A program made the position numbers and the translations under genes. From NCBI RefSeq assembly GCF_905237075.1, contig NW_026136706.1:24783935-24847934 (forward strand): a stretch of 64,000 nucleotides of DNA, written 5' to 3'. This DNA comes from Dicentrarchus labrax (taxonomy: Eukaryota). The notes beneath the pieces are model-generated. The model was not told the DNA's origin and ran no database searches. It saw nothing but the letters and a program-made list of their open reading frames with translations. Positions 1 through 27,489 of this stretch are shown here, piece after piece. The number at the start of each line of letters is the position of its first letter. The first letter of the stretch is position 1.

Positions 1-137
1 ACTTCCAATTTTCCCTCCAAAGACATTAAAGAAAATTAAATAATTCACCTTGTTCATGTTCATGCTAACGCCCGCCATTACTACAGTTGCTGACTTCCCT
101 CTCTCTGCGTTCTACTACGAACGAGCCTCAATGTTCT

Positions 138-215
138 GTACAGTGGCTACTGCGCTGTGATTGGTCGAAAGTCACTGAACTGTGGCTACTGTGCTGTGAT
201 TGGTCGAAGGTTACT
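138..215. repeat. Tandem duplication of a ~37-bp unit carrying inverted CCAAT boxes (…ctgtgattggtcgaa… x2)
   Basis: Direct read. ATTGG motifs at about 160 and 197. Confidence 0.6.
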
Positions 216-591
216 GGTCTTTGTGCTGAATGAATTTAGCCCAAATGGGCAGTAAATCAAGGGGGCGTGTCACGACACCAGTCAATCAAAATTGAATGGA
301 AGCGTACGCTACTGTGCTTGGGCTGTAAGAAATAAGTCCATTCAAAGGAAAAACCCAGGATATATCATATATCCTTTTTTTCTGTCACTGTTTGGTGCTG
401 CTGCTGCTCTAGGTTCCACCAAAATTTAAAACAATATGTTCTAAGGTTTTTAATAATAGTTTTTCATCTTTATTGTAAAAGACGGGGGGCTTAGCCCTGA
501 TATGGAGAATCCAACCCAGACCTTATTGATTTATTACAATCTATCTATTGAGATTTTTTTTTTACGAATTTCAATATGAACACAATAATAT

Positions 592-596
<5 letters not shown>

Positions 597-650
<54 letters not shown>
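597..650. repeat. (CA)27 microsatellite in lectin A intron 4; on the gene strand it reads (TG)n starting 6 nt into the intron
   Basis: Direct read. Confidence 0.95.
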
Positions 651-653
<3 letters not shown>

Positions 654-656
654 TAC

Positions 657-798
657 CTGCTCTTCCTCACTTTTTATCACCGCTAGATCTGCTCCTCTGT
701 TTCTGCAGTCCTCTCTGGCTTTATCCCAGGTACCAGACTCAGTGGAGAAGAGATAACAGCGGTCCTTAAACATCTTCCATCCTTCAGAACAGTTTTCA
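657..798 (-). pseudogene. Lectin A exon 4 (CTLD part 1). It is 142 nt, against 143 nt in paralogs B and C, and a 1-nt deletion at the KTCPEGW codons breaks the frame when the canonical splice sites are used.
   Basis: Read from the reverse complement as gtgaaaac-tgttctgaagg, against gtgaaaacctgtcctgaagg in paralog B. With phase-1 entry from exon 3 this reaches a stop after about 33 codons. An alternative acceptor 17 nt downstream (ttctgaag|GATGG) restores the frame but deletes the first CTLD cysteine. Confidence 0.5.
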
Positions 799-1178
799 CT
801 GTAAGATAAACATACAGACACATTACAGACCAACAAGACTCATGTAAATATTTGTGAAGTTATCTCTGTAGATGTCATTTTCAATGAATGACCCTTCAAT
901 GCCCCTCAATATATGTTCATTTGGTTGGTGATTTTTCTGTCGATATAAGAGGATTTACTGTCACAATGTAGCGCTGTGCAGAGATAGAGGCCACAGTTGT
1001 GCCAGTGGTCCATCATAATATACTGTTTGATTTAGTTGTGATTAATGAAAGGTTACGTTTGAAAGCCTGAAACTGGTTTCTCATAAAATACATTAAAATA
1101 TCTTACCACAATGCAGGATGACTTAATCACTGGATTTCTGAGTAGCAAGTGAATCTAAGCACTTCATGCAAGGACTCA

Positions 1179-1355
1179 CCCAGTTTGGACTCTGAAGTCT
1201 TTCCAGCTCTTGAGTCATTTCAGTGATTCTGGCATTCAGCAGGTCTCTCTCTTCAGTCAGGGAACAGGACTTGTTGTCACTGGCCTGAAGACGCTCAGTC
1301 AGGTTGGCTTTGATAGAGGAGAGTTCTGCAGCTGAACGCTGAGCGGAGACATGGT
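1179..1355 (-). CDS. Lectin A exon 3: neck (…ANLTERLQASDNKSCSLTEERDLLNARITEMTQELERLQSPNW)
   Basis: The frame matches ORF 1123..1368(-). The exon is 177 nt, against 171 nt in paralog B. Confidence 0.7.
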
Positions 1356-1619
1356 CTGAAATAATCAAGAAACACTTCTCTGAAACACCAGATACCTACT
1401 GGAAGATCACAAACATAAATCAGTGTGGCTTTCAGCAGTAAAGTTATGCCACTAAAATTACAATGAAAATATTTCAGTCAGACAACTCACATTTGAAATG
1501 TTTATTACAGTACTATAGTCATTTAGATTTTGGCATCTGGGCTCCAACCTCATCATTCCCCACAGATATGTTTACATAGAAATATTGGGGAGTGATGAGC
1601 AAATACCTTATTCCTAGTC

Positions 1620-1855
1620 AGAGTCTACAGGTGGATGCTTGGGTGGTGGTGGGGCTTACAGAGCAGCAGCAGCAATACGGATGCAGGGCAACAGCGGCAT
1701 TGGCAGAGCAGAGGGAGAGCTGGGGAATTGTGCAGTTTAAATAGACCGCCAGATTGGAAGGGTGCGCTTGGTTAGTAATTATGGAGTGAGGCATGTCATG
1801 TGTGTATAGCAGTGCAGCTGGAGTTGACTGCCTGAACTAGCTGGCTTCATTCCAT
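1620..1855. repeat. Interspersed repeat, (CAG)n-containing, that ends …gactgcctgaactagct. A related copy lies at 9855-10205.
   Basis: An alignment of about 80 bp (…attatggagtgaggcatgtcatgtgtgtat…ttgactgcctgaactagct) plus flanking CAG/CTG runs. Confidence 0.5.
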
Positions 1856-2015
1856 ATTATGCTTTAAACAAACAAAATATAAATGAGAAAATCGAAAGTA
1901 AATCAAACAAAAATTTAAAAAAGTGACTGAAAAGTGAGTGATTTTCAGTGAAGAATTATCCTTCTATAATCACAATCCAGCCTGACTTTAATCTCTGGAT
2001 GTGATTTAGACTCAC

Positions 2016-2117
2016 AGTGGACACCGAGGCCGATGAGTCCAACCAGCAGGAGAACAGTGAGCAGACCCAGACAGAGAACAACAGATCCATGAAATCTCCT
2101 CTCTGAGCTCCTGGGAC
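2016..2117 (-). CDS. Lectin A exon 2: transmembrane segment (GPRSSERRFHGSVVLCLGLLTVLLLVGLIGLGVH)
   Basis: Codon positions were calibrated against ORF 1945..2307(-). Acceptor and GTGAGT donor are present. Confidence 0.7.
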
Positions 2118-2237
2118 CTGAACACAGAAAAGACCAGTGAATACAGTAAATCATACAACAGCAGTAATGACAGGTAATAATACACATTTCTGCAGAGCTC
2201 AGTCTGTCAGCCTCTCTGTCTGAATCATTATTCTTAC

Positions 2238-2307
2238 CTCTCTGATTCTGGGATGCTCTTAAGTCAGCACAGTCGTCATATTCATCAGTCACATAGATTT
2301 CCTCCAT
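2238..2307 (-). CDS. C-type lectin receptor paralog A (partial; the gene continues past the window start), exon 1: MEEIYVTDEYDDCADLRASQNQR
   Basis: The frame matches ORF 1945..2307(-). It is a mirror image of paralog B exon 1, forming a head-to-head inverted duplication. Confidence 0.65.
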
Positions 2308-3358
2308 CGCTCATAAGAGTGCCAAATGTTCTGCTGTGGGTCAGCTCTGCAGCACAAGCTACTCTTCACATTAATGATAAAACTGTAACTGGGTTCAGTT
2401 TTCCTTTATTTACAGGAAGTCACACCTCAAAAACATAGTTTCTGAGATAATCGCCTGTCATCTCACTTGAAACAGGAACAAGAACTAGACTATACTAGAA
2501 TGAATAAAATGTATACATAAATGTATCATCTTCATCACATCAAGTCCATGGACATGAGCTTTGTATTTGTAATCTTCCATCACCATGTTGAAAAAAGGAA
2601 GGTGGTTTCAGAAGACAGACCACTGATTCAGTGTTCCTGGATTGATGCGAGAAAATTCTTTGAATATAACAGTATTCTTTTGAGGATTGTGCCAAAACAG
2701 CTAAGAAATACTGTAATAACCTCATCAGTTCTCACTTCATTTTTCATTCTCTGACCTCAACCGAACTTTGTTGTCATGGCCACCGTCTTTCATTTACCAC
2801 AGTTAAGGCTAGGGTTAGTAGTAGTTGTAACTTGTTGTTGCATGAACTCGACCTCAGTCATAAATCTGTTGTTCAGTTATGTTAAATACAAACATTCAGT
2901 CTAAGAGTAAAAAAATAAGCAGCATTATGGTTCCCCCAAAACATCATTTCCTGATGCAGAGTAGTTGCAGAAGGCCAGAATTTGTAAAACATAAGATTGG
3001 TCATTAAGAAAAGAGTTTTATTACTTCTCATTTTATTGTTTGAATAGCATTTTATTTTATCTCACCACTGCTGTCAACTAAAGGACACACTTACAAAGAA
3101 ATAACATATTATATGTATATATTTAGATTTTTGTCTAAAGTGTACTACTAAATACTTTATTTTACTTACTTTATAATTTTCTTACACTTTGTTCGTTCCT
3201 GTTTCAAGTGATATGACGATTTCTCAGAAACTAGTTTGAGGTGTGACTTCCTGTAGATGAAGACAAACTGAACCCAGCTTCAGTTTTATCATTAATGTGA
3301 AGAGTAGCTTGTGCTGCAGAGCTGACCCACAGCAGAACATTTGGCATGCTTATGAGCG
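2308..3358. promoter_or_regulatory. Shared head-to-head intergenic region of lectin paralogs A and B. Proximal sequences of about 160 bp (2308-2470 and 3200-3358) are mirror images around a spacer of about 730 bp.
   Basis: The reverse complement of 2308-2470 aligns with 3200-3358. The divergent start codons sit at 2307 (-) and 3359 (+). Confidence 0.5.
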
Positions 3359-3428
3359 ATGGAGGAAATCTATGTGAATGTTAAATATGACGACTGTGCT
3401 GACTTAAGAGCATCCCAGAATCAGAGAG
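3359..3428 (+). CDS. C-type lectin receptor paralog B, exon 1: start codon and N-terminal cytoplasmic tail (MEEIYVNVKYDDCADLRASQNQR)
   Basis: ATG at 3359 has a good Kozak context (gcgATGG). The exon ends at a GTAAGA donor at 3429 and is homologous to exon 1 of paralogs A and C. An upstream out-of-frame ATG lies at 3354. Confidence 0.75.
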
Positions 3429-3548
3429 GTAAGAATAATGATTCAGACAGAGAGGCTGACAGACTGAGCTCTGCAGAAATGTGTATTATTACCTGTCATT
3501 AATGCTGTTGTATCATTTACTGTATTCACTGGTCTTTTCTGTGTTCAG

Positions 3549-3650
3549 GTCCCAAGAGCTCAGAGAGGAGATTTCATGGATCTGTTGTTCTCTGTCTGGG
3601 TCTGCTCACTGTTCTCCTGCTGGTTGGACTCATCGGCCTCAGTGTCCACT
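3549..3650 (+). CDS. Lectin B exon 2: transmembrane segment (GPKSSERRFHGSVVLCLGLLTVLLLVGLIGLSVH)
   Basis: Acceptor ttcag at 3544-3548 and donor GTGAGT at 3651. The exon encodes a hydrophobic stretch of about 23 aa, the signal-anchor typical of type II receptors. Phase is 1 at both ends. Confidence 0.8.
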
Positions 3651-3807
3651 GTGAGTCTAAATCACATTCAGAGATTAAAGTCAGGCTGGATTGTGATTAT
3701 AGGAGCATCATGTTTGTTCTATGTGTCCCTTTTTGCTTGTTCAGGATTTTTCTGATCTGTTTTATTTACTGTCTTGCTTCAATTTCCACAATTACATTTT
3801 GTTCCTT

Positions 3808-5128
3808 TTAACCCTCCTGTTATGTTCGGGTCAAACTGACACGAAGTTAAAAAAATCAAAAAAGAAAATAGTTAAAAGTATTTTTTCGGTATGCTTCTGC
3901 TTGGCTTAATAAGTGTAATCAACATATAAAATGAAAATTGATTATTTCACTTATTTGCAACCCCCCCTGCATGTTTATATTACATAAATACTGTTCGAGT
4001 CAATTTATCCCCGGTAGTCAAAGTGGAGGCTAAAAGGGGTCAGACACAAGTGTGTGCGTGTGTTTGTGCGATTGGGGTGAAATATGTCTCACAGTTGCAA
4101 AGAAACAAACAGTATATATGACACTTCTGAATAGAGATGGGATTTATGGCTCTTTGAAGGGATCCGGATCTTGAGGAGCTATTCCTTTCAAAGAGCCGTT
4201 CAAAAGGCTCATTTTTATATCTATTTATTTTTAAGAAGCTACCAGACTTGAAGGAAATATTATTTTGACAGATGTTACGCTTTGCTTTGCCGTTTGTTTC
4301 GTCCGAAAAGTGCATCCACATGCTGCTGCGCTTTCTTTGGCTCATTGTAGCTGCAGTATTGACACTCCGCACTCACCTGAAGGCAGTGCGCCACTGTGTC
4401 GGACAACTCAGATGACGTCATGCAAAATTTGCATATCAAATTAGCATCCATGTGTCTCAGTGGAGGAGCAAAGGAGGAGCTTGTGTGCGCATGCTGTATG
4501 CGTGACAGCGATTTCAAAAAAAAGAAAAACGAAATGCTCTCAACTGCGACTCGGTTCCCATCGTTCATGTTAAAGAGCTGTTCAATAGATTTGGTTCCCC
4601 TTTTAGCCTCCACTTTGACTACAGGGTCAAATTAAGCCAAGAAGAAGTTTCATACCGAAAAAATACTTTTAACAATTTTTAAAATATTTTGTATATTATA
4701 TTTTTTTAACTTTAAAGCGAGTCAATTTGACCCGAACAGAAGAGGTGTCTTATGTTAATTTATTAACATCACTCCATAAGAAAGAAAATTCAAAATGTAA
4801 AATAACATTTTTAAAAAAGTCATGTAAAACTATTGTATTTTATATGTAGGTCTTTCCAATGTACATTTAAAAAAGTTTTAACATGCATTTTATACGGAAA
4901 ACAAGTGAATTATCCTCATTAAACCATGATCTGTGAGAGGTAAAGAACATCATTGCACTAAATATTGAAATGGTTAGTATTGGAGTTAATAATGAGATAT
5001 AAACAGTGTTTATTGGGATATTTTAGTTTCTAACACTTTTGGATAATTAATTGGATAATTGCCCCAGGTCAAATTGACCCGGGAACATCATTGCTGTTCC
5101 TGAGAAACGAACATAACAGGAGGGTTAA
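3808..5128. mobile_element. piggyBac-like non-autonomous DNA transposon (about 1.3 kb) in intron 2 of lectin B. It has TTAA target duplications at 3808-3811 and 5125-5128 and perfect 17-bp TIRs CCCTCCTGTTATGTTCG…CGAACATAACAGGAGGG.
   Basis: The TTAA…TTAA flanks and the CCC…GGG termini are piggyBac-superfamily hallmarks. Internal GTCAAATTGACCC palindromic subterminal repeats are present and there is no intact transposase ORF. The homologous intron of paralog A is about 1 kb shorter. Confidence 0.6.
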
Positions 5129-5331
5129 GCAGTTGTGTTTCAGTATTTTGTAATTGCACACAAAAAAGCAAACACCCAAATCAAATTGAGTTTAGTGATT
5201 TCAGCATAATTCCAGCATTTATCCAATATCAACTAATTTAACAGGAGTATAATTTTCAAGACACAACAGCAGTGGCATGTTGTATCTGACAGCTACAGGT
5301 GTTTCAGAGAAGTGTCTGTTGTTTATTTCAG

Positions 5332-5502
5332 ACCATGTCTCCGCTCAGCGTTCAGCTGCAGAACTCTCCTCTATCAAAGCCAACCTGACTGAGCGTCTTC
5401 AGGCCATTGACAACAAGTCCTGTTCCCTGACTGAAGAGAGAGACCTGCTGAATGCCAGAATCACTGAAATGACTCAAGAGCTGGAAAGGCTGACTAGTTT
5501 GG
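5332..5502 (+). CDS. Lectin B exon 3: coiled-coil neck (…ANLTERLQAIDNKSCSLTEERDLLNARITEMTQELERLTSL)
   Basis: Acceptor tttcag before 5332 and donor GTGAGT at 5503. The frame matches ORF 5277..5549 and the sequence has heptad-like leucine spacing. Confidence 0.8.
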
Positions 5503-6418
5503 GTGAGTCCTTGTCTATAGAATCTACATTTACTTGTTGTCTAATCTAAAACATTTTTACTCAGAAATTCAGTGTTCACCCTGCAATGTGATTTAGTGGC
5601 CAGTTTCAGGTCAATATTCAATATCTCCTAAAAATAAAATATGATTATGGACCACTGTAAAACTGTGGCCTCTCTCTGTGCATGAAACTACATTGTAGAC
5701 AAGGACGAAGGCTCTCTCCTGTGTAAAATAAACACACAATAGGTTTGTGTCTGTTTGATTCAGATTCCCACCACACAGGTCAAAAGTTTAAAAATCAAGC
5801 AGAAAAATCTGAATTTGGAATCTCAAACTATCCAACAAGGATAGGAGTGTAGTTTGAGGAGCATTAAATGGTCACTGATGGAAGTTCAGGAGGTTCTGAG
5901 GGTAAGGAGCGATGAACTGATGGATGTGGAGGGGAGAAGGAAGAATATGATGTCACCTGTTAGGTTGGTCTGGGAGGACGTGCTGAAGGTGTGCAGAGGG
6001 AGACTCAGTGTGGGGATTCTGTCTCAGGCGTGTTTTCTACCAGAGCTGCTTACAGGCCCCAAGACGGTACCGAGAACGAGATGTGGGAGAGGTATGCACT
6101 GATTGAATAGGAAGGGATGAGGGGAAAGAGGCTGAAGGTATGTGGGTAGAGTTTAGCAGAGGGAGGGGTAGGGTAGGATGAGGTGAATGGAAGAAGGGAA
6201 AGAAAGGGAGGGTGGGTCCAGAAAACTGAAGCAAAGGAAGGAAGGAGTTGACCAGGTATAAGAAGGTTGCCAGGTGATAAGGAGTGGTTGAGGCGTGGCC
6301 CTGCTCCTGAACCTAAGTTATCTAATCACATTCATTTCACTGAAAAAGCTGATAACTTCACAAATACATTGACACAAGTCTTGTTGGTCTGTGATGTGTC
6401 TGTATGTTTATCTTACAG

Positions 6419-6561
6419 TGAAAACCTGTCCTGAAGGATGGAAGATGTTTAATAACACATGTTATCTCCTCTCCAATGAGTCTGGTACCTGGGATAAAGC
6501 CAGAGAGGACTGCAGAAACAGAGGAGCAGATCTGGTGGTGATAAACAGCGAGGAAGAGGAG
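6419..6561 (+). CDS. Lectin B exon 4: CTLD part 1 (VKTCPEGWKMFNNTCYLLSNESGTWDKAREDCRNRGADLVVINSEEEE)
   Basis: The long-form CTLD N-terminus carries the CPxGW…C…C…WxxAxxxC pattern. Acceptor cttacag at 6412-6418 and donor GTACAG at 6562, followed at once by an intronic (GT)n tract. Confidence 0.85.
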
Positions 6562-6564
6562 GTA

Positions 6565-6566
<2 letters not shown>

Positions 6567-6610
<44 letters not shown>
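6567..6610. repeat. (GT)22 microsatellite starting 6 nt into lectin B intron 4
   Basis: Direct read. The position is homologous to the (TG)n tract in paralog A. Confidence 0.95.
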
Positions 6611-6612
<2 letters not shown>

Positions 6613-6832
6613 AACCATGACACACGACGAAAAACCCCACAACAATTATTCTGTATCACTGTGGACAAGATGGAAAAACACATCAAGATGTCTTTCTGGA
6701 AACAGATATTACCCATCTATACAGGATTTAATGAAACCTGTTATTGTCTCTTCTTCTAAGTGATATTTAGAATGATTAGGTTACGATCATTATTGCATAA
6801 TAACATAATGTGGGTTTCTTTCTGTTGAACAG

Positions 6833-6936
6833 ACGTTTCTCTCCAAGTTCATACCCTACAATGCTTGGATTGGTTTGACTGACAGAGAGGAGGAAGGGAC
6901 CTGGAAATGGATAGATGGAACTCCACTGACTCTGAC
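6833..6936 (+). CDS. Lectin B exon 5: CTLD part 2 (TFLSKFIPYNAWIGLTDREEEGTWKWIDGTPLTLT)
   Basis: Contains the WIGLTD…EGxWxWxDGTP CTLD core. Acceptor gaacag before 6833 and donor GTAAGG at 6937. Confidence 0.8.
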
Positions 6937-7957
6937 GTAAGGCTTCACTTTGGTTGAATATCAATATTAACTTATACAACTATCATTTTATATTACTAGA
7001 ATGTATTCGATGATGTGCATTCATAATTAACCTCACTGTCTGACAGACTTCATTGGCTGAAACCAAATAATCAAACTAACTATTTAAGGCCACATGGGGG
7101 CAGAAGAACTCCACAATAAGTTGCTAATCTCAGATCCCTGACATATTTTCACCTTTTAACCATTTTATGGCACAAGTGATGGCAAATGGCCTATTTATAC
7201 ATCCAGGAGACAATAGTCCATCTCTGTTTGACTCTGTAGCTGTTTATTCACCTGTATCTTTATCTGACATTTGATGGTAGTGTACAGTGTGTTTATCAGA
7301 GCACAAATTTGGTTGAAAACAGCTGCCTGCTCATGGAAATGGAGCTGATGAAAGCCTTTTTACTTTTTTAACGTTTCTGTTCAAATCTCTTCTATTCAGC
7401 GCAGATGGACAATGCAAATAAAGTCAGGTATTAATACTATATGGAGGAGACAGACAGACAGCGATGCTGTCCTTCTGATAGTGTAAGACACGTCTATGTG
7501 TCTTTCGAGAGCAGTGCTTTCCAACCTGTGGGTCGCCAAAGCTTCACAGGGGTCGCAAGGCCTTCTTGATTTTAAGGTGTATCAGAGGTGTTCATTTCTG
7601 TGAAGAAAAGTAAATGTAAATTGTTAAGTACATTGTCTAACAGAACAATGGCAAAGCATCAGGGAAAGCACTGAATTTGTCAAGAAATCACACCATTGAG
7701 TCAGTTTGATTGTTAAAAATAAAAATAAAAAAACATAATACAGAGAGAGAATTGTATAAAAAAACAGAAATTTATTTGAATCACTTGTTTTACACAAACG
7801 TCTTGCAGTTACTGAGTTCATTATTTGGGTTAATTGTACAGTTTTGTATATAAAATGAAATATCCATGGCTGATGGGTCTTGGTGATGAAGTTGTTTAAG
7901 GACTGTGTTCATGTCGGAGATACAGTGTCATGATTCTGTCGTTCTCTATCCCAGTAG

Positions 7958-8108
7958 GTACTGGGGACTACATCAGCCTGATAATGGTGGTGGAGACCCA
8001 CTGTGGGGTGAAGAGGACTGTGCACATATCAGAACTGAGGTTTCCACTCACTGGAATGATCTGTCCTGTGAAGCTTCTCTGCGATGGATCTGTGAACAAA
8101 CAGCATAA
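7958..8108 (+). CDS. Lectin B exon 6: CTLD part 3 with QPD and WND motifs and stop codon (YWGLHQPDNGGGDPLWGEEDCAHIRTEVSTHWNDLSCEASLRWICEQTA*)
   Basis: QPD and WND are Ca2+/galactose-type carbohydrate-binding motifs, and a C…C disulfide pattern is present. TAA stop at 8106-8108. An alternative acceptor 3 nt upstream (7955) is equally possible. Confidence 0.8.
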
Positions 8109-9149
8109 CACTGCTGTATAAATTGTTCTTAAAATTGTAATCTATTATGTCAATCTAATACGTCAACTTGCATGTTTGTAAAAAATGTGTTTGAGTGTTT
8201 GACTGTGCTGAGCACAGTGCTATTGTATGTATTCAAACACCTTCAAATCACAGCTGTAGCTAAATATTGACGTGCAATATTGGAATGCCCCTATAGTAGT
8301 TAATGATTAAAAATGTCTTAACTGTATCTTTCCCTTTTTCTAATAACCAAAATAAAATATTAATAGTACATAATTTCAGATTATTTTGTTGGTGACCCTA
8401 TTCGAATCTGGCTACTTTTTTCGACTGAAAATGGAAGTTGGAGTAGTTTTCCTTGTGATCCAGCAGATAGCGCTGTACTATGAGGATGAGCAATGACATG
8501 CCCTATTGAGCTGTCAGTAAACTAGACTAGTAATGTAATGTTCCTGAATGGACAGTCACGACCCCAAAGCATTGGAGAAGCAGTGTGCTTCTGTCGACTA
8601 GGGACAAATCAGCTGTCCAACTCTACAACTCCAAATCCGCAAACTTGCTAACGTAGGCCGCCTCAGTGAGGCAGCAGAGCGGCGGCACCACAGACAACCT
8701 CGTCTGACTGCTATTGTTCAGCACACTCGGCTTCAGCGGGTTGCTTGATCACCATCACCAATAAGACAGCAACATTAATATGCAAGGATATGCAGCCCAT
8801 TGGTGTGGTAAGAGCGAATGTCTTATCCTATAGTCTTTATCTTATGCTTTCCTCAGCGGCACTTTCCATTTGTTCTGTGTTTTGAGATTATTTTTCCAAA
8901 TTCATTGAAACGAATTGTGTGTCATTTGAAATTTGTTCAAACCTGATTCGTAAGTGTTGGCCTTACAAGGCAGTGTGGCCAGCAGAGGTAGTAAGGAAGA
9001 GTGGGTTAGCAAGGTGGGGCTAATTTTTGCGGTCCAGTGTGTGGAATATAATATTCATTGGTATGTTTTCATTAGTGTATAATCATGAAAATAGTAGTTG
9101 TTGTGTTTTTGTTACTTTAGAATGAGTTGTTTTTATCTACAGATGCCTG

Positions 9150-9300
9150 CCATGTTTCTACTGTAGCCCAGAATGGACAAACCAAACACTGGCTGTAAAT
9201 GGGGCCTTCTGTGTTTTTCAGCCACCATCATTTCTCATACACACTTCACAGCCCTTTCTCATTCCCAGGTCATTAACTACAGACGCTGGCAGTGTTCAGT
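9150..9300. repeat. Interspersed repeat (…ctactgtagcccagaatggacaaaccaaacactggct…); a second copy lies at 61975-62105
   Basis: Direct alignment of the two regions. Confidence 0.6.
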
Positions 9301-10584
9301 TAGTTGCAATTTGCAACTTCACCACTAGATGCCACTAAATCTTACCCACTGGACCTTTCAGTGTGTCCATATCCAATTATTATCCAGGCTGATTCATACT
9401 GTCACAGACCGGCTGGGGGAAGGGGAAAAGAGGAGAGTACAACACATGAGTTTTTAACTAAATACTTATTTCACAAAAATATAAGGAAATAATGATAATA
9501 TAAAGTATGTCAATCAGTGCGTCAGTAGTGTTTGACGCGTTTGTATGAGTGACAGTGAAGTATAATGAATAAAGAAAATGAACACCAAGAAAAGTTAAAC
9601 CCAAACAACAAACCATATGCCCAGAAAGAGAGAGAGAAACTGACTGACTCCTCCAGCTTATAAAGCTGAGGAGCAGCAGGTGCTAATGCACTTCCTGCTT
9701 CCCTCCTAAAAGGGAAAGACAGCCCAAACAGGAAGTCAAGAGGGCTGTCACAATACAGTTGTGTTTTCACCAAATAAACTGACCATAAACATGATGAGAG
9801 TGCTGAGCTGATGACCTGTTTCTGGAAAAGAAATCCTTATTTTACATTACATTACCTTATTTATACCTTACATTACAGTCAGCTTGGAAAAACTTGTCTC
9901 TAGGGAAGTAGCGGTGTCCACCATGAGCTGGAAGCCTTCCTCGAGAGCTCCCCCCATGGCGCCCTCTTCTTCTGGAGGCTCTGTGTGCTGCTGCTGCTGC
10001 TGCTGACGTGTCTGCTGACGTGTCTGCTGTTTTTTTGGAGGAATCCTGTATTGTCTTTTTCTTCTGACACAACATGTAAGGTTGGTTGAGCGGTGAAGGT
10101 CAGTCCAAATGTATTTATTTCTAGTGATTATGGAGAGTGAGGTATGTCACATGTGTATGGAGGTGCGGCTCGAATTGACTGCCTGAACTAGCTCCATGTA
10201 TCAAAGCGAAAGAAAATCAACTCTGTTCTGGGCTAAGCCCCTTTTAAACTTGGGCCCCTGGCAGCCAACAATCCCTGTGGCCTGCTCGCCAACATCATCT
10301 GGCAAAAAGTATCCCCTGGGAGAACCCTCAACTCCTGTTTATATAGCCTGTGGCTCCTCCTACCCCAGGAAGTAATGATTAAGGAATCAATTAACTTATA
10401 GCACACATTTACCTGATAGCCAATAGATCATTTTAGAAGTCAACAGTGGAAAAAGTGTGACTGTAACAGTGACTGAGGTGGACAAGCACTCTATGTTGTG
10501 TCTTATTTAAGTTACAGGTCACGGGGCATCCCTGTGACACACTGCACTATCTATATATCAGTCTGTCTGTGTCTGACTGAACAT

Positions 10585-10650
10585 TCTTACCTGTCTGGTT
10601 TCTAAAGAGTCTTGAGTCAACAGGTTTGTCAATAGATTTCCTCCACTGAG
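10585..10650 (-). pseudogene. Relic exon 1 of a decayed fourth lectin copy. It is homologous to lectin C exon 1 with the GTAAGA donor, but the start ATG is mutated to GTG.
   Basis: The reverse complement aligns to 15395-15480. Intron-2-like repeat material lies at 9850-10200, and no TM or CTLD exons were found. Confidence 0.45.
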
Positions 10651-11381
10651 GATGTAAATGACTGAACTCATTCTTGGTGGTTTTTATGGTTTCCTTGAGG
10701 TTTATCTTTTGCAGAAGTAACAAGTGAAAAAAGTACCTGATGACTATTGTCTATTGCAACACTTAAAACAGGAACAGTTTGACAACAATGTAATGCTTTG
10801 TTAAATGATCTAGTACAGAAGTCAAAGGTCATTTTCAATTACATTCAATCAATTACAGAAGTCTACTGTATAAATCGTTATTTGTCATTAGGTTTTCTGG
10901 TGTGGACTGTGTAATGTCATAGTAATTACTTTGATTTCATTTAATTATGGGTTCATACTTTTTAGGTGAATTGACAAAAGCAGTGAATGTGACAGTAAAT
11001 GTCTTCCTCTATTCAATAACTGTGGAGGAAAGCATTGAGTCTGTTTATTATCCTTATCAGTGCATTCAGGGTCAAACATTATAGTTAATTAATTAACATT
11101 AGCTACAACACTTGGGGGAACATTAAGTTCCATTGCATACTGGATGGTAGTCATCAGCCATACATCTGTATATACATGCTAAAAATCCCATTTTGTTCCA
11201 AAATTGTCCAAGTTAAAAAATCCTAGTGAGATCTAAATTCCTGGTCTCCTTTCCTTTATAGTCCATGTTGATGTACATTATTTCTCTCTTTCTATTTACA
11301 CGTACAATGATGCAATTAAAGGCCTTTTGAGTAATCATAACTTACATAACAAAATTATTTATAAACATATTGTTTAAAACC

Positions 11382-11539
11382 TCAAGCCATTTTTTCACAG
11401 ATCCATTTCTGAGCATCCTCACACCGCCGATCATTCCAGTTTCCTTCAGTTTCCTTGCCAGCTATTACAATTGCACAGTCCTCTTCCCCCCACTTTGGAT
11501 CTCCAGCACCACTGTCAGGCTGCCCTCTCACCCAGTACC
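11382..11539 (-). CDS. Lectin C exon 6: CTLD part 3 with QPD/WND and stop (YWVRGQPDSGAGDPKWGEEDCAIVIAGKETEGNWNDRRCEDAQKWICEKMA*)
   Basis: Read from the reverse complement. The TGA stop is the reverse complement of 11382-11384. Acceptor cctag. Confidence 0.75.
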
Positions 11540-11856
11540 TAGGAGGTTATTGAGCAGGTGAATTTTTAACAGCATTTACGACTTCCCAAAAAATAAATGA
11601 TTGCAAGTTTAACATTTTCTGGTGTATTAATTTAAGTATTATTTTGTCTCCACCCACTGAAGTCAACCAGTGAGTTTTTCTGCATGTAGAGCAGCTACTT
11701 TAACATGAAAGGTTGAAAATTAAGTTCAGTCTGACTCTGATAACAGTTATGATACAGTCGTACACAAACAAATGTAGTAATGTACAGCAAGAGTTGTATA
11801 TGTGCCTATATTCAAATAAGGTGTAGAACATTTACTGAATTTACTGTATGCCTTAC

Positions 11857-11960
11857 GCCAGAGTCAGTGGAGTTCCATCAGTCCATTTCCAGGTGCCCTC
11901 ATTGTCTCTGTCAGTCAGACCAATCCAGGTGTCCTTCCTGATGTTTTTAGTGACAAACTC
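11857..11960 (-). CDS. Lectin C exon 5: CTLD part 2 (EFVTKNIRKDTWIGLTDRDNEGTWKWTDGTPLTLA)
   Basis: Read from the reverse complement. The exon is 104 nt, matching paralog B exon 5. Acceptor ttaacag and donor GTAAGG. Confidence 0.75.
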
Positions 11961-12394
11961 CTGTTAAAGGTAAAGGAAAGAAATCCCATCTTTAGTTTGA
12001 ACCTTATTATATATATATAATTATATTGATTAATTTCAATAAGATCCACTAACATTCACTATCACTATCTATGTCTACATTTGCATCATCTATACAGCTT
12101 GAAATGGACATAAAAGTTCATTCACACATATGTAGATGAGGCAAACTTCAACCTGAAGGAGGGGAAGGAATCTGATCTTCCAGACTGATATCTGTTCTCT
12201 TTTTATTCCAAGATTCAATGGATTCATCCATAGAAGTGAGGAAAATGACATTGCTCCCATTCAAATCAACCCAACGATGATTACAGATTATAAGAAAATG
12301 AAATATATTCTAATAAAAAAGTATGATGAAGAGTAGAAATCATAGTCAGTGGTGGAAGAATCTGCTGCATCTAAAAGGAAAAACTGCACACTAC

Positions 12395-12537
12395 CTGTTC
12401 TTCAGAACTGTCTATGATCACCAGATCTGCTCCTCTCTCTCTGCAGTCTTGTCTGCCTTCTTCCCAAGAATGAGAATTATTGGAGAAGAGATAACAGGTA
12501 CAACTGAACATCTTCCATCCTGCAGGGCAAGTTTTCT
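12395..12537 (-). CDS. Lectin C exon 4: CTLD part 1 (KKTCPAGWKMFSCTCYLFSNNSHSWEEGRQDCRERGADLVIIDSSEEQ)
   Basis: The frame matches ORF 12371..12562(-). The exon is 143 nt, the same length as paralog B exon 4. Donor GTAGTG. Confidence 0.8.
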
Positions 12538-13129
12538 CTGTAAAATGAACCAAACAAAACACAGTAAAGATCAGAAAAGACCCATGTTCTTCTATTTGAA
12601 AGGGTGAGATTAAATATATGTTCTGTGGATGACAATGTTTGTGTACACGGGCATTTATGATATAGTGAATAATGAATAAAAACAGGCCTTACCCAGAATG
12701 TAACAAAATAACTATTACAGCTTTATTAAAATGTCCCTTTGTTCCTAGTGCAGTTAATGTGCTTAATAGTGTGGACCTGATGTCACCAACTGGTTTGTGG
12801 AGTGCTGTTTTGAAGGATGTTTCTGAAACTATTTTTAGCAAGAAATTGATAATTATTTCATTATATTGATCAGCACTGCCTAGTTTGACAGTTTGATCTG
12901 AGTTTGGTGCGTTCAGCTGGACAGACTCACTGAGAATGAGCTGTCAATCACAAGGTAGCCACACTCTAAAGCGTACTCTGCTCTAACGTCTGTTTTACTC
13001 TTAATGGGACCATCATTTATTAAATTAACATCATTTTGCATTAAGAGGACATGAAACCAGCAACTGAGACCATAAATTAATTAGGAAACTGTTTACTGAG
13101 CTAATAAATCAAATGAGACTCCCTACTAC

Positions 13130-13285
13130 TGGACTCTTTTGCAACCTGTGGAGCTGCCCCCCTGCTGGCCATTACATAGAATGCAGGATACTTTGCGTTG
13201 GCTTCAAGTCACAGGCCTGCAAGCTCTGCCCTTTATATATACTGTCAATGCACTGACCATCGACTTCTCAGCAGCACTTATCATG
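13130..13285. repeat. Interspersed repeat (…ggagctgcc.cctgctggccat.aca.agaatgcagg…tactgtcaatg…); a second copy lies at 35095-35250 in a PARP4 intron
   Basis: Direct alignment of the two regions. Confidence 0.55.
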
Positions 13286-13911
13286 GCTACCATTATTATA
13301 GTTGTACATTCTAATAGTACTTTTAATTAACTTGAATGCTGTGTCTACTATGAATCAAATTTACCCTTGACATAGAATAAAGATCTAAACTGGACTCAGA
13401 TGACGCATGTTGTATATAAAATTGTCGCAAGCAAAAATAGTTACGCATATAAAGAAGATGCATTATTATTTGGAAGGATCACAATCTTATAAGGAAGTGA
13501 AACTCTTTAAAGTGGCCACATTTAAAACATTTGAAAACTCTGGGGTTTAACAAAAATAGATACTAATAACATCTTAAAGTGGAAAAGGTGCCTTATACAT
13601 AATCATTTGTGAATATACAGTCTACATAGTGTGATGACACAGGTTCATCACTAAACAGTCTGCATCCTGTGCCTTATTGAAGTGACAGCTATGAGCCTAT
13701 TTACTGTCTCATTTACAGTAAATTGTGCAATTTTACAACAGCAATGAGACCAAGAAGATGTTCAAATAAAGTTAATAGTTAAGTTTGGACAAGGTGATGT
13801 AAGTGTTAAACATATTCTCTGAATCGTGCTATTCTGTACTCGAGGCTGTGGTGAGTCCTGATCTCTATGTTGAGAGACAGCTGTGCAGAACCCACATAGG
13901 CAAACACTCAC

Positions 13912-14043
13912 TCTGTTTGGGCAATCTCTGAAGCCTGTCCACCTCTTTAGTCATTTCAGTGAGGCTGGCATTCAGCAGGTCTCTCTCTTCAGTCATGGAG
14001 GACAGCTTGTCATTGATGGAGAGTTCTGCAGATGAGTCATGGT
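13912..14043 (-). CDS. Lectin C exon 3: neck (YHDSSAELSINDKLSSMTEERDLLNASLTEMTKEVDRLQRLPKQ)
   Basis: The frame matches ORF 13865..14086(-). Acceptor tttcag and donor GTGAGT. The neck is shorter than in paralogs A and B. Confidence 0.75.
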
Positions 14044-15211
14044 CTGAAATAAATACATGTGTGTTTTTAGATACATGTTTCCTCATCTGAAAATACCTAA
14101 TTCATTCTGACTGAAGTTTCTATAACAATGTTCATAAATCACGTTTTCTGCTTATGCAATCTGTTAAATGTCAGCTTGCCTTCCCAGTGAAATGCAAGAC
14201 TCTGCCAACATCCTTCCCAGTTTTGACCAGATTTCTCTGACAATTTGAGCCCCTGTGGATCCCCACTATGGAGAACAATATGTCTCTGACTGTTACTGCT
14301 ACTTGCAAGCCATAGCTATAAAAAGAAACGGTGTATGGGTGTCACTGTGGACGGACACTGCCATCACATCATCTTGGGTCAACCAGATCAGGAATATCCA
14401 GCTTATCTGGATCTTTCTGGCCAAACTGGTTCAGGAAGACCACCATCTTAATGAAGCAGCAGGTCAGGATGAAGGACCTGCTTTTGTCTTTGTGAGAGAG
14501 TCTGTGGAGCAACTCTTTGAAGTTGTCTGTGGCAAAATTTTGCAACTCTGTTGCCATTATTTTATAATGCTCCTTTTTTAGTAACCTGGTGTCCAGCATA
14601 GGACTACAGTCAAGAGGTGAAAGCCACTATTGTGGAGTGTACTCCAACATGCAAATCAGCAAGCATGAACTCATTAACACTAGCATGGGCTTCAAATTCA
14701 TCCAGAAGTGGAGTTTTGGACGCGGTAAAAGTCCATATGGGTGTTTTCATGGACATCTTTATTGTGTTGCTGCAACTGTCCGCTCTGTTGATGTAAAAAA
14801 TGGTGACATTATTCTGGGATTTTCTTACTGGGACTCTATTGCTGCTCTATGAAAGGAAGATGCCAGGGGTGCCAAATGTGGCACAGTGGGACGAGACAAT
14901 TAAACAGTTTTTTGTTCATTTTTGCTGCTCTAGCTGCTTGAATGTGACTTTTTACCATGGGTGGAAAAATTCATGGTTCGTACAAAATATATTCTTATGA
15001 TGTCAGTGTTGCTTCTGTGATGCTTTTCAAAACAGACAAAGTGCTATAAAGACAATGAGTAAAGGAAAAATACATCACAGAAAAGCCAGGATGGCAAACA
15101 GACATTTTGGTAAAACAAGCAGCTTTAGAGCAGAACAAAGCTCCTAAATGCTCCAATGCTCCTAAAAAAACACAATTCAAACTGAAGTTAACTCATTAAA
15201 ACCAGACTCAC

Positions 15212-15313
15212 AGTGCACACTGAGGGCGATGAGTCCAACCAGCAGGAGAACAGTGAACAGCCCCAGACAGAGAACAACAGATCCATGAAATCTCCTCTCA
15301 GAGCTCGTGGGAC
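15212..15313 (-). CDS. Lectin C exon 2: transmembrane segment (GPTSSERRFHGSVVLCLGLFTVLLLVGLIALSVH)
   Basis: The frame matches ORF 15177..15383(-). The exon is bounded by an acceptor ag and a GTGAGT donor. Confidence 0.75.
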
Positions 15314-15412
15314 CTGAAAGATCAGTGAATACAGTCAAGTGTACAATATTAATAATGACAGATGATAATATGTATCTGTGCACAACCTCTCAGTCTGACT
15401 GAACGGTCTTAC

Positions 15413-15479
15413 CTGTCTGATTTGCTAAGGGTCTTGGGTCGACGGGTTTATATTCAACTTTGACATAGATTTCCTCCAT
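15413..15479 (-). CDS. C-type lectin receptor paralog C, exon 1: MEEIYVKVEYKPVDPRPLANQT
   Basis: Reverse-complement ATG at 15477-15479 and donor GTAAGA (rc at 15407-15412). An out-of-frame upstream ATG sits 5 nt upstream, as in paralogs A and B. Confidence 0.65.
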
Positions 15480-17298
15480 TGCTCATAAAGTCACCAACTA
15501 TTTCCTAGAGAGTCAGCTCTGCAGCACGGTTACAGCACAGCAGAACGATGATATAAGTCAACAATTTCTCTGCAACTTCTGAGGAAGTCACAAGTTTCAG
15601 AGGTGATAAAAATAGTTTGTACAACAATTAACCAACTGAAACTCGATTTCTTTTCACACGTGTAATGATAGTCACATGAACAGATACTGTACATAAGAGT
15701 GAAGTCCCTAGATACACTGTATACACTTTATTTTAAGCTTGCACTGTTGAAGAAGTTAGCTGAATTGGCGACTTCAAATGACCTCTAATGAGGAGAGAAT
15801 AAATAAATGTAACACCCCTCAGAGAGGAATGATTGAGTCGCTTTATTTTATATTAACATTCTCAAATTTAATTTACCCTAAAAATGATATGTAACCCTTT
15901 CAAACACCACTGCAACATGTATATTGGAAAAATTCAGCAAAGGACAAAAATATCACGTCTTATCAAGGTCTTGTGAGTTACCAGGTAAGACAAAACGCCA
16001 AGGTCGCACTAGTGTAACTAGCAAGGCTATTTTGGGAAATGCTCATTTGATTTCTTGCTTTGAGTTCAATGAGAATGAAACATTATTAAGGACTGGAAGC
16101 AACAGGGAAACCCCTTGTGTGAGCTCAGCACTTACCATTATCCAGCAGCGAGTTCTATCTTCAGAGACATTCATGTGATCCAACACGACGTCTTTAGTCA
16201 GCCCAGGAAAAAAGACACGTCTTCCCAGGGTGAAATCAACGTTCAAATTTTGTTGTCTTTTTGTCAAGTATTTCTATGGATTGACACAAAATTTGGTCCA
16301 AGATGCATCAACTTACTGACCCATGAGGTACAACCACACTGAGTTTACTGCTCCTGTAATGATCTCTTGAAGATGATGATTACAGTCTCACTGGAATATC
16401 AACTCCCACCATAACAAAGAACAACAAATGACCACCAATACACCAAGTCTCTTGTGTGTAATTCACTTTTTGTCAAAAACAGGTATTTCCTACACAAACC
16501 ACTGGTCATCAAAGTAAAGTAATGGATCAGTTGCTCTGTCAGCGACTCTATTAACTATTAACATCAGTCTTATTGTTGTCCCAACAATAAGTTCCTTGAG
16601 CTAAATCTTGTCAAAGGACATCTACTGCACACACAGTTCCTGGTATTTATTTTGCTTTTGGTAAGAACACATAATATAATCTTCTGTAATAACAGACCTG
16701 CCATTAGGTTTGCTAGTTATATCTTATTTGACAGGCATCAATACACATAATGTGAGATTGTTATTGCCCTCATTGTTACTTCAGGCTAACACTATCAGCA
16801 CTAAAACAGGCCAACTTAGTGACAATGACAGAAAGTAATTGTGTAAACTATCACCTTAAAACACATTCTTAATATCTAGGAAGAAAAAAAACCCAGCAGA
16901 GTGCAATTTATGCATTTATTCAAACTTTATTTTTAATGTTTGAATGGTGCTGATTAATCAAAAATGCTGATAAAGTTCTGTGTGAAAAGGCTGAAATAAA
17001 AAGCAGCAGTAGTAGTGAATAACTGAGGCATGTTGAACGCTGTGTTTTATCCTTGATGGGAGTGAATATTTGTTTCACACTTTGATCATGATGTTTTTTA
17101 GATGGCTAGGTTAACAAGTTCAACCAAACAAATGTATTATTAACAGCTTAGTTGTTTATGAGAGGAAAAACAGACAGTATTGGATTGGTGTCAGTATTGG
17201 CACGTATCGGTACTTTTTTCATGTCCGTCTGTATCAGACATGAAAAAGTGGCATTAAGCTGTCCCTGTTTTTCCATTCTATATTCATTCCCTGTAATT

Positions 17299-18480: not shown

Positions 18481-18767
18481 AACGTAAGAGGTGACAATAT
18501 ATGTCGCGTTTATCTTTTAGCTATCTTCAAAATGTGGTTGTCTTTCCAGCATAGACGAGCCTAGCACGTAGCGTATCTCAGCACAGGAAAGGTTCTGATC
18601 AATGGCTCAACTGCTATTGGAGTACAGAGTTAAAAGGGGCGGGGCTTAGGAAGGTTTAATTGAAGACACTGACAGTTCAAAGTACTTTACATTGGCCAAA
18701 GAAATGGGTCTACGTCTAAAAAGATAATCTCATCCCCTCACACCATCTTCTCCTCCAGCTGGCCCGC

Positions 18768-18975
18768 TTAGTGGACCAGTAACGGGGCAGCGGTCTTCTG
18801 CAGGTTCAGACCACTGAGAGGTGAGAAGGGAGGGAGGCCTTCGTAGCCCAGCAGCTGACGCGTGGAGGATTCCCAGCTCCGCCCAAACTCCAGCCGGCTG
18901 TAGACACATGGGTACTGCCGGTCGGCCCAGCAGACCCAGTCCACCGCTCTCTTCAGCTCCTCCCACCGCTCAGGC
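18768..18975 (-). CDS. parp4: PARP4 terminal exon (RPERWEELKRAVDWVCWADRQYPCVYSRLEFGRSWESSTRQLLGYEGLPPFSPLSGLNLQKTAAPLLVH*)
   Basis: Read from the reverse complement. The human C-terminus is …SEWVRRTEGQYPSICPRLELGNDWDSATKQLLGLQPISTVSPLHRVLHYSQG*. The TAA stop is the reverse complement of 18768-18770. Confidence 0.75.
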
Positions 18976-19287
18976 CTAGAAGAAAAAGTCAGTAGTTACC
19001 AAAAGAGGTAGCCGCTCTGGGAACAGTGACAGCTAAGTTTACAAAAATCATCCAGAGAAACAGACAATTTGGATTGATCAAATGCGGTGTTTTTGAATGA
19101 CATTTTAAATCTACTGTAGGTTGTAACCCACATGTGATTCTAACTGAACCTCAGGCTCAGAAAGATTTGCTTCATCAACATAAGAACACTTGTTTTTGTC
19201 CTCATGTGTCCTGGTTCGAACATTCCCACAAATACCAAAAAAGTGAACACGCCATCTTCATGTCGTTTCGTCTGGTTTTGGACAGAC

Positions 19288-20847: not shown

Positions 20848-21153
20848 CTGAAACAACATGATCAAAACAGGACTCTCTAAGTGAATACTGGCAATATTAT
20901 ATATTATTATAAATACCCACACGTAACCACACACACACTTGAGCTGACTCTCTTTCTTCCACATGCATAGATACACATACACAAAATAACTTTCAATCCA
21001 CTAGTCAGTTAACATAGAGATAATGGATTCTGTTTTTCATTTTGTCAACCAAAGCTTGCAGCCATTTTAAATAAGCACAGCAACAATTGTCTTACAATAA
21101 TTATTATCAGGGTTGAAGGATATCTTAAAACAAGTAAAAGTTTTGGGACTTAC

Positions 21154-22040
21154 TCAAAGAGTGGATATTTTGCTGAACGCTGAGGTCGAGAGAACTCCAT
21201 TCGACCAAATAGAGCTCGGGTTCTCCTTTTAGTAGCTGTGATATCAGAGAATGATGATGCTTTGCTTGGACCAATCAGATTATCTGCAGACTTTGCAGAT
21301 GCACCGGAGAACATGGAAGTCCTTATTAACTGGTGCCTGGTAGGTTGAGAAGCTCCGAAGAGAGTGCCACAAGGAGCAGAAAAACCCTGAGCAACAATGG
21401 GAGCACCAATGGATGGAGGAGGAGGAGGACGAAGAGGAAGAGGAGGAGGTGAAGAAGGATCATATGAGAAAGACTGACCAACAATGGGAGAACCAATGGA
21501 TGGAAGAGGAGGAGGACGAGGAGGAGGTGAAGAAGGATCATATGAGAAAGACTGACCAACAATGGGAGCACCAATGGATGGAGGAGGAGGAGGAGGAGGA
21601 GGAGCATGTGGATGTTGAGAACGATCCATTGAGACAGCCTGAGCACCCATAGCCCACACATGTTTTTTAAATGAGTGCCGAGTAGCAGAGTGAGCAACAT
21701 AGAGAGGGAGAGGAGGAGGTTTGAAAAGATTAGATGGGACAGCTGGAGCACCAATGGAAGGTGGTGGAGGAGGAGGATGTGGAGAACTATCGATTGAGAG
21801 AGCCTGAGCACCCGTAGCACTAAGAGTAAGTGAGTGTTGCCGAATAGAGGACTGAGGAGGAGGTTGAGAAAGATTAGCTGGGACAGCTGGAGCACCAGAG
21901 GAAGGTGAAGAACGTCCGGATTTAAACACAAAACCACTTTGGCTAAAAGACAGTTCAGAGTCATGGCATAGGCTGGTTTCAGAGTGACACAGAGGAAGAG
22001 GAGAATCATAGATCATGTAGCACATGGACCAGGTCAAAAA
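21154..22040 (-). CDS. parp4: PARP4 exon 30: 887-nt proline-rich region with internal tandem repeats (…PPPPPSIGAPIVGQSFSYDPSSPPP…)
   Basis: Codon positions were calibrated against ORF 21150..22046(-). The apparent in-frame TAA is really part of a perfect GTAAGT donor (ttga|GTAAGT). The exon corresponds to the proline-rich tail of human PARP4. Confidence 0.7.
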
Positions 22041-22469
22041 CTGCAAAAGGAGAGATAAAAAGACAACGTTAAGTTAAAACTCCTCGCGTGCGCTTTTTAA
22101 ACACCACCACCAGTTCATTGTACTTAACACACAAAAATCAGTTTTTAGATTAATTCTACCAAGCAAACTTTTGAAGGGGCCTTTGTGAAGCACATGCAGG
22201 AGGAACATAGTCTTCATCAATGACTTTACACATGAACTCATTACAGATGAGTGGTGCAGTGTGCATTGTCCTGCTTAAAAATAATAGGTGTGATGCCACA
22301 CAAGGACGTGTGATGCTAATTTAGGACTGGTCAAGCTATTAAGTGTTATTTATTTGTTTATTTTTCCAGCTGTCCATGCATTCAAATGAGCAGCTTGAGC
22401 TAGAAATGCATTTGTTGTCCTTCCAAAAGAGCAAATATGCAGCTGTGGTTTGTGTGTGAAGGCACAAAC

Positions 22470-22769
22470 CTGATCCTGTACAAAACCCATGTCTGGCATC
22501 CCAAAATGAGAATCCTCAGAAAGATCGTCATCCGCGTCACTCCACTCATCTACCCCTTCTTCACATTCGTCGTCTGATTCTTCTTCTTCGCTCAACCAAT
22601 TCCCACAACCATCCACCATTGTCGCATCCCAGTCTATATATTCCTCATAGTCCATATATTCCTCTTCACTATCTTGAGGAGAAATCCAGCTGACGTACGG
22701 AAGGAAGTCCACATCTTCCTCTGCGATCAGCTTGGGGATGTCAGTGAAGCCCTCTGTTTCTTCTGAATC
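22470..22769 (-). CDS. parp4: PARP4 exon 29: acidic segment (DSEETEGFTDIPKLIAEEDVDFLPYVSWISPQDSEEEYMDYEEY…GFVQDQ)
   Basis: Codon positions were calibrated against ORF 22350..22712(-). The human equivalent is FPDIPKVSELIAKEDVDFLPYMSW. The exon is 300 nt in phase 0. Donor GTTTGT. Confidence 0.8.
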
Positions 22770-27389: not shown

Positions 27390-27489
27390 CTTCTCAACCC
27401 AGTTGTGTTTGGTTTTTGTGTCGAAGAATTCATAGGCTCCACCCCCTGCCTGAGCCAGGGCTCTCAGCATGTGCCGATTGGCTGTTGGG
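27390..27489 (-). CDS. parp4: PARP4 exon 24 (SPTANRHMLRALAQAGGGAYEFFDTKTKHNWVEK)
   Basis: Read from the reverse complement. The human equivalent is STANRHVLRILSQCGAGVFEYFNAKSKHSWRKQ. Donor GTGAGC. Confidence 0.75.

Follow-up and report, generated by a model that had tools for sequence, protein, structure and literature searches.

Two intact C-type lectin receptor genes, a frame-broken inverted copy and an exon-1 relic beside a PARP4-like gene in Dicentrarchus labrax

In Fugu, a "DC-SIGN subgroup" of the group II C-type lectins is tandemly expanded (DC-SIGN-F1 to F8) and has no tetrapod orthologues (PMC514892; Zelensky & Gready 2004). We analyzed a 64,000-nucleotide stretch of the genome of the seabass Dicentrarchus labrax (contig NW_026136706.1, positions 24,783,935 to 24,847,934; hereafter the window), the first 15,480 nucleotides of which contain two intact six-exon lectin genes, B and C, together with a partial copy, A, and a relic copy, D. 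A search with the assembled B protein (tblastn) confined C-type lectin exons to 654–15,479, with none in the rest of the window and no further lectin exons at 16–64 kb. The region 1–15,480 is, most probably, part of a lineage-expanded teleost group II ("CD209/CLEC4-like") C-type lectin receptor cluster located beside PARP4, made up of the two intact genes, the partial, frame-broken inverted copy A and the dead relic D. The seabass genes share with the Fugu subgroup a type II layout, one carbohydrate-recognition domain (CRD) each, an organization in tandem clusters, lineage expansion with no clear tetrapod orthologue, and retention by most members of the Ca2+- and sugar-binding residues. The seabass locus adds the partial inverted copy and the exon-1 relic, and the likeness holds at the level of the group rather than as gene-by-gene orthology. 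An earlier interpretation made from the DNA letters alone (the sequence-only reading) had counted three six-exon paralogs and a decayed fourth copy; the decayed copy is present, but only two of the paralogs are intact, because A consists of exons 1–4 with a broken frame.

Three sets of better characterized receptors can be set against B and C. The CRDs of ASGR1 and CLEC10A (PDB: 5jpv, 6py1) have the same QPD and WND motifs, the same EDC glutamate, the same long-form disulfides and an equal QPD-to-EDC loop length; they differ in sequence (41% identity of the B CRD to each), in a Trp that B and C replace with Gly, in a locus that is not syntenic and in falling outside the separate fish clade. 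Human CD209 (DC-SIGN) is likewise a type II group II receptor, with 43% identity to the B CRD and a comparable structural match. The neck of DC-SIGN is long and built of tandem repeats, whereas that of B and C is a single helix of ~55 residues; DC-SIGN also carries EPN where B and C carry QPD, and its loop is 6 residues shorter. The RefSeq name "CD209" is an automated label and not evidence of orthology. Finally, fish Mincle-like and CD209-like receptors share their overall architecture with B and C (Fugu Mincle, 9kpl, 41% identity), but both Fugu Mincle and MsDC-SIGN of largemouth bass (PMC11084180) carry EPN, unlike the seabass genes. A "Mincle-like" receptor with QPD is reported from barramundi, according to the citing text in PMC11929736.

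B and C have a common plan, in which successive exons encode the tail, the transmembrane (TM) segment, the neck and a CRD that is spread over exons 4–6, and the exon lengths give both genes the intron phases 1,1,1,0,2 (Table 1). The plan and phase pattern proposed by the sequence-only reading are thus confirmed for these two genes. In mammalian group II lectins, too, the CRD is split over three exons. Once spliced, B yields a protein with 100% identity to XP_051259620.1, and the C product matches XP_051259630.1 exactly; RefSeq lists the two under one name, "CD209 antigen-like protein E" [Dicentrarchus labrax]. The expectation that such genes would be poorly annotated was therefore wrong. Pfam Lectin_C (PF00059) was detected in both proteins well above the gathering cut-off of 22.6 bits (B, 87.2 bits, E=1.5e-24; C, 84.7 bits, E=9.2e-24). 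An AlphaFold2 model of B, built from a 73-sequence alignment, has a mean predicted local distance difference test score (pLDDT) of 79.6 and consists of a disordered tail (residues 1–30), a helix spanning the TM segment and neck (33–113) and a confident C-type lectin-like domain (117–246). The hydrophobic TM stretch is VVLCLGLLTVLLLVGLIGLSV. An N-terminal tail, a single TM segment, a helical neck and one C-terminal CRD make B a type II group II lectin, as had been proposed for these genes. Both proteins probably oligomerize through the helical neck, which has about 40–55 residues, and would act as cell-surface receptors. At the acceptor of B exon 6 (7950–7960) there is a tandem CAG|TAG site of the NAGNAG type, of which RefSeq picks the distal TAG, 3 nt beyond the CAG at 7955; use of the proximal CAG would add one Arg to the product.

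The neighboring gene was identified as PARP4-like because exons for PARP catalytic, VIT and VWA domains follow one another in that order at ~27369–34178 on the minus strand of the window. A lectin gene also adjoins PARP4 in each of three percomorphs compared. Chaetodon auriga has the seabass order, lectin(+), lectin(-), PARP4(-), and over 10 kb upstream of its B orthologue there is no lectin exon. Enoplosus armatus repeats the Chaetodon arrangement, its locus being read in the reverse direction, and has in addition a third gene placed head-to-head with the B orthologue. Between these two head-to-head lectin genes, at 18561–19068 (+) of the Enoplosus locus, sits an inverted fragment that comprises CRD exons 5–6 only, with an exon-5 peptide identical to that of the B orthologue; its relative position is that of seabass A, and it counts as another, independent partial inverted copy. 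The PARP4-adjacent lectins of Trachinotus anak are arranged in tandem. In a neighbor-joining tree of CRDs, B was placed in a seabass-only clade with P0002, P0004 and a further seabass lectin, Z, which lies outside the window and is described below; C grouped with the PARP4-proximal genes of other species, and the fish sequences stood apart from human ASGR1 and CLEC10A. The tree carries no bootstrap values, a point that counts against the reading. The pattern across percomorph clusters and seabass copies supports evolution of the cluster by birth and death, in keeping with the rapid change predicted from the sequence alone. The high polymorphism of CD209E in Lates (PMC11346364) is consistent with a fast-evolving cluster, and Lates calcarifer homologs are 60–63% identical to B.

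A and B lie head to head in an inverted duplication, and blastn placed the boundaries of its two arms, which the sequence-only reading had left to be defined, as given in Table 1. The core of the arms (1955–2431 and 3235–3711) is 477 nt long and 96% complementary, far above chance. Collinear blocks extend outward from it: 1955–2479 with 3195–3711 (94.5%), 1169–1389 with 5298–5513 (93%), 959–1021 with 5639–5701 (80%) and 608–864 with 6351–6610 (92%). Overall, the arms are ~95% identical, with several indels. They take in 164–172 nt upstream of each ATG, at 94.5% identity, and the shared proximal promoters and head-to-head geometry suggested earlier are both borne out; a full palindrome is not, because the left arm ends in intron 4. 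No complete gene is therefore present in both arms, and the frame of the left-hand copy is broken. The homology between B and A ends exactly at a (CA)n tract, and a (GT)n tract occupies the outer end of the right arm, within intron 4 of B. Intron 4 of C has no such tract, and the duplication break may have occurred in or at a microsatellite. Much of the difference in arm length is explained by a 1.3-kb element in intron 2 of B that is missing from intron 2 of A. This element (3808–5128) has perfect terminal inverted repeats (TIRs; CCCTCCTGTTATGTTCG...) and TTAA on both sides, a piggyBac-like signature, and nested within it is a second TIR-bounded element (4010–4626) whose 30-nt TIRs are 97% identical.

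The promoter and exon 1 of copy A are intact, but the copy does not encode a complete receptor in the window. Exon 3 of A has 176 nt (B, 171 nt) and exon 4 has 142 nt (B, 143 nt), and because of these differences, splicing at the conserved sites (donor GTGAGT, acceptor TTACAG) makes TGA the first codon of exon 4. Exons 5 and 6 were sought in 1–660 by tblastn, blastn and six-frame translation, and none was found; the sugar-binding motif of A is unreadable. When the conceptual exon 1–4 product was searched against 5.8 billion proteins, none contained the exon 3–4 peptides of A, and the best matches were P0005 (92%) and B (87%). It is improbable that A is instead a complete, functional third gene whose exons 5–6 lie outside the window on the left and whose frame is kept by means of non-homologous splice sites. 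Several observations do weigh in that direction and against a broken copy: each of exons 1–4 has an open reading frame (ORF) and GT-AG sites, 16 cryptic donor/acceptor pairs give an open frame, one of them retaining the first CRD Cys (the frame-restoring pairs are weak, e.g., donor 1163 with acceptor 798), and the missing exons could lie in the left flank, outside the window. Each is answered by stronger evidence. The conserved donor and acceptor are strong sites and lead to an immediate stop. Intron 4 is 271 nt long in B and in C it has 434 nt, yet the 656 nt available contain no exon 5, and the (CA)n tract is where the homology to B is lost. The exon 3–4 peptides are matched by no protein among those searched, the nearest being 92% identical, and the annotated isoform that contains the exon-1 peptide of A joins it to exons 3–6 of another gene.

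That isoform is the X2 form (P0005) of the seabass "CD209 antigen-like protein C". The exon-1 peptide of A, MEEIYVTDEYDDCADLRASQNQR, is identical to the sole segment that separates X2 from isoform X1 (P0125), and the rest of X2 is unlike A in exons 3–4. The simplest reading is that the gene concerned, Z (XP_051259625-27), is located just left of the window on the minus strand and that the promoter and exon 1 of A serve as its annotated alternative 5′ end; the exon 1 that belongs to Z itself begins MEEIYANVKHDNF... Two considerations tell against this arrangement. The use of A exon 1 by Z is proposed from the identity of its peptide to part of a computationally predicted isoform, and an identical exon 1 might exist elsewhere. 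In addition, the position of Z and the lack of A exons 5–6 further left are inferred, the sequence covered beginning at position 1. The Z protein has QPS in place of QPD, has lost the two N-terminal Cys of the long form (KTYPEGW..., DRSYLF) and has a shorter loop with no Trp; Z is probably not a canonical sugar binder.

The divergence between A and B is similar in non-coding sequence (22/456 positions, 4.8%) and in aligned exon positions (24/485, 4.9%), but it is patchy along the arm: 1.8% in intron 1 plus exon 2 compared with 8.2% across exon 4 and the intron flank upstream of it (Fisher p=0.003). Of the 11 codons that differ between A and B in exon 4, nine are non-synonymous, and seven A residues in this exon that are unlike B (K, D, R, F, T, A, Q) are common to Z. 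This patchiness and the residues shared with Z suggest a mosaic ancestry of A, or gene conversion among paralogs, instead of one clean duplication after which the copies drifted independently. Among the seabass paralogs, the half of the protein formed by tail, TM segment and neck is more conserved than the CRD (B versus Z, 91% and 70%). Copy A would have arisen by partial inverted duplication, or by gene conversion within the seabass-specific B/P0002/P0004/Z clade. A duplicated segment would have run from the promoter into intron 4 and broken off, on its outer side, at the (CA)n tract; exons 3–4 would have lost their frame later.

The likely ligands of B and C were considered from an alignment of their CRDs with those of human ASGR1, CLEC10A and DC-SIGN, for which the human sequences are exact PDB matches. 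Both seabass CRDs have the QPD...EEDC...WND arrangement with six Cys, as the sequence-only reading had noted for QPD and WND, and the residues of Ca2+ site 2 are kept. Among 73 percomorph homologs, QPD is present in 63, EPN in 6 and WND in all 73. A Trp directly after QPD in ASGR1 and MGL (QPDDW) is replaced by Gly in B and C (QPDNG and QPDSG, respectively). In ASGR1, this Trp stacks on the sugar and sits in a Gly-rich extended loop. B and C have a Trp 6 residues further on (DPLWGEEDC). As a general rule, QPD favors the 3-OH/4-OH arrangement of galactose (PMC7080814, PMC11084180), and for this reason B and C probably bind galactose-type, or broader microbial or host, glycans through Ca2+ site 2. 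The displaced Trp and the mixed Man/Gal inhibition that is frequent in fish lectins whatever their motif (PMC11084180) both pull the other way and leave the specificity uncertain; judged by the motif, galactose-type binding is plausible.

The sequence-only reading had likened these genes to the asialoglycoprotein receptor (ASGPR) and macrophage galactose lectin families, and this likeness stands for QPD and loop length but not for kinship. Functional orthology of B and C to mammalian ASGPR/MGL, with a role as hepatic or macrophage Gal/GalNAc clearance receptors, is likewise improbable. The proposal gains from QPD, WND and the loop, which matches ASGR1 and CLEC10A in length and is 6 residues longer than that of DC-SIGN, from a Tyr at position 5 of the tail, and from one seabass paralog automatically named "hepatic lectin-like". 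A Tyr at tail position 5 is also found in ASGR1 and MGL. The CRD identities, however, give ASGR1 and CLEC10A no advantage over DC-SIGN, and Mincle and SRCL match equally well. A Foldseek search of the B model against the PDB returned Mincle, MGL, SRCL, ASGR1/2, CLEC4F, DC-SIGN(R), CD23 and langerin, all with E values of 1e-13 to 1e-11 and 29–41% identity; phmmer against PDB sequences gave an equally flat ranking, with CLEC4F, DC-SIGNR, Mincle, ASGR2 and MGL about equal. The QPDDW Trp is absent and the fish sequences form their own clade. The seabass lectins neighbor PARP4, which is not known to be a neighbor of the human ASGR1/2-CLEC10A cluster. In Fugu, one ASGR-family orthologue exists apart from the expanded subgroup (PMC514892). 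Orthology to either ASGPR/MGL or CD209 was rejected on the grounds of equal distances, the missing Trp, the difference in motif and synteny.

Two further features bear on how a lineage-expanded group II cluster of this kind might work. A TM Arg couples Mincle to FcR-gamma. The TM core of B has no charged residue, although two Arg lie just ahead of it (SERRFHGS), and B therefore does not resemble receptors with Mincle/Dectin-2-type coupling in this respect. The tail begins M-E-E-I-Y-x-N-V (B, 3359–3382), and among the 73 homologs Y5 is present in 71 and N7 in 70; the tail motif is YVNV in B and YVKV, with Lys at position 7, in C. YxNV fits both a YxxPhi endocytosis signal and a Grb2-type pYxN site, and the acidic EEIY resembles the hemi-immunoreceptor tyrosine-based activation motif (hemITAM) of CLEC9A. 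B and C would internalize or signal through this conserved Tyr. A literature search on fish lectins of the immunoreceptor tyrosine-based inhibitory motif (ITIM) and illr types yielded nothing useful. Motif terms were likewise absent from a paper on CD209 of tongue sole.

Of 10 lectin promoters drawn from four species, 9 have a TGT(G/A)ACTTCCT element with a PU-box/ETS-like GGAAGT core 80–120 nt upstream of the ATG, those of A, B and C among them. Because of this conserved PU-box-like element, we infer that expression of the cluster genes could be driven by an ETS/PU.1-type factor, and the mirrored promoters of A and B may support co-regulated divergent transcription, as the sequence-only reading had proposed. 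A bolder combination of these observations is possible but doubtful: the partial inverted duplication would have given Z a second copy of the B promoter and exon 1 (isoform X2), with mirrored PU-box promoters driving receptors that have different CRDs, and the MEEIY-x-N-V tail would be the signaling or endocytic motif of the family, combining the Grb2-type YVNV with the hemITAM-like EEIY and not described for mammalian Gal-type lectins.

Long-read assemblies are known to contain palindromic artefacts, but it is scarcely conceivable that the inverted duplication is one, produced for instance by a chimeric long read or by haplotype collapse. The arms are only 91–98% identical with several indels, the 1.3-kb insertion flanked by TTAA and further intron content set them apart, and the 715-bp spacer between them is unique. 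Moreover, A exon 4 shares substitutions with a third paralog, P0005, and Enoplosus has comparable head-to-head genes and fragments; an assembly artefact was accordingly rejected.

Table 1. Positions in the window of the lectin genes, copies, duplication arms and promoter elements
Feature	Position	Strand	Remarks
Left arm of inverted duplication	608-2479		blastn
Right arm of inverted duplication	3195-6610		longer than the left arm through insertions in introns 2 and 3
Spacer between arms	2480-3194		unique, AT-rich, 715 bp; matches nothing else in the window
(CA)n microsatellite	596-651		outer end of left arm; starts 6 nt past the A exon-4 donor
(GT)n microsatellite	6567-6610		outer end of right arm, B intron 4; starts 6 nt past the B exon-4 donor
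Copy A	2307-657	-	partial, frame-broken inverted copy, exons 1-4 only; tblastn and splice analysis
A exons	2307-2238, 2117-2016, 1355-1180, 798-657	-	
Gene B	3359-8108	+	intact six-exon type II C-type lectin receptor; product 246 aa
B exons	3359-3428 (tail), 3549-3650 (TM), 5332-5502 (neck), 6419-6561, 6833-6936, 7958-8108 (CRD)	+	all introns GT-AG
Gene C	15479-11382	-	intact six-exon paralog; product 234 aa
C exons	15479-15413, 15313-15212, 14043-13912, 12537-12395, 11960-11857, 11538-11382	-	GT-AG introns
Copy D, exon-1 relic	10648-10589	-	closest to C exon 1; ATG changed to GTG, internal deletion, in-frame stop, donor kept
Copy D, second piece	10122-10193	-	intron-like, 72 nt; 83% identical to A intron 2 (1773-1842)
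Promoter element of B	3242-3254	+	TGTGACTTCCTGT; GGAAGT core on opposite strand; 117 nt upstream of B ATG
Promoter element of A	2412-2424	-	same TGT(G/A)ACTTCCT type; 117 nt upstream of A ATG
Promoter element of C	15580-15592	-	TGTGACTTCCTCA; same TGT(G/A)ACTTCCT type; 113 nt upstream of C ATG

Copy D is a dead exon-1 relic accompanied by one intron-like piece, and no other exon remnants of it were found. Intron 2 of C contains a 76-aa ORF at 14369–14599 (-) (MLDTRLLKKEHYKIMATELQNFATDNFKELLHRLSHKD...) with short ORFs nearby, all coding-like in appearance; a Pfam scan of these ORFs gave no significant match, and they may be the remnant of a transposon or retrocopy. An interspersed repeat in the B-C intergenic region (9101–9358) recurs at the far end of the window (61927–62182) with 77–87% identity. 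Toward the PARP4-like gene, a long proline-rich ORF with repeated SIGAPIVGQSFSYDPSSPPP units (21153–22073, -) adjoins a very acidic ORF (22353–22769, -). Neither has a Pfam match; they may belong to the PARP4-like gene as 3′ exons or make up a gene of their own. A Pfam scan of the long ORFs at 21150–22046, 22350–22712, 39951–40325 and 43516–44115 likewise produced no significant match.

As a finding this is an ordinary one, because the genes are already in RefSeq and clusters of this kind have been described since 2004, and nothing in it would surprise a specialist. Its practical value is a corrected count, with two genes that are intact, a partial copy whose frame is broken and a relic, and "CD209-like" and "ASGPR-like" emerge as labels rather than statements of orthology. 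The locus also offers testable handles: the tail motif for signaling, the displaced loop Trp for ligand specificity and the PU-box for cell-type expression. Anchored by PARP4, the cluster can serve for comparing fast-evolving innate-immune lectins across percomorphs, including an important aquaculture species.

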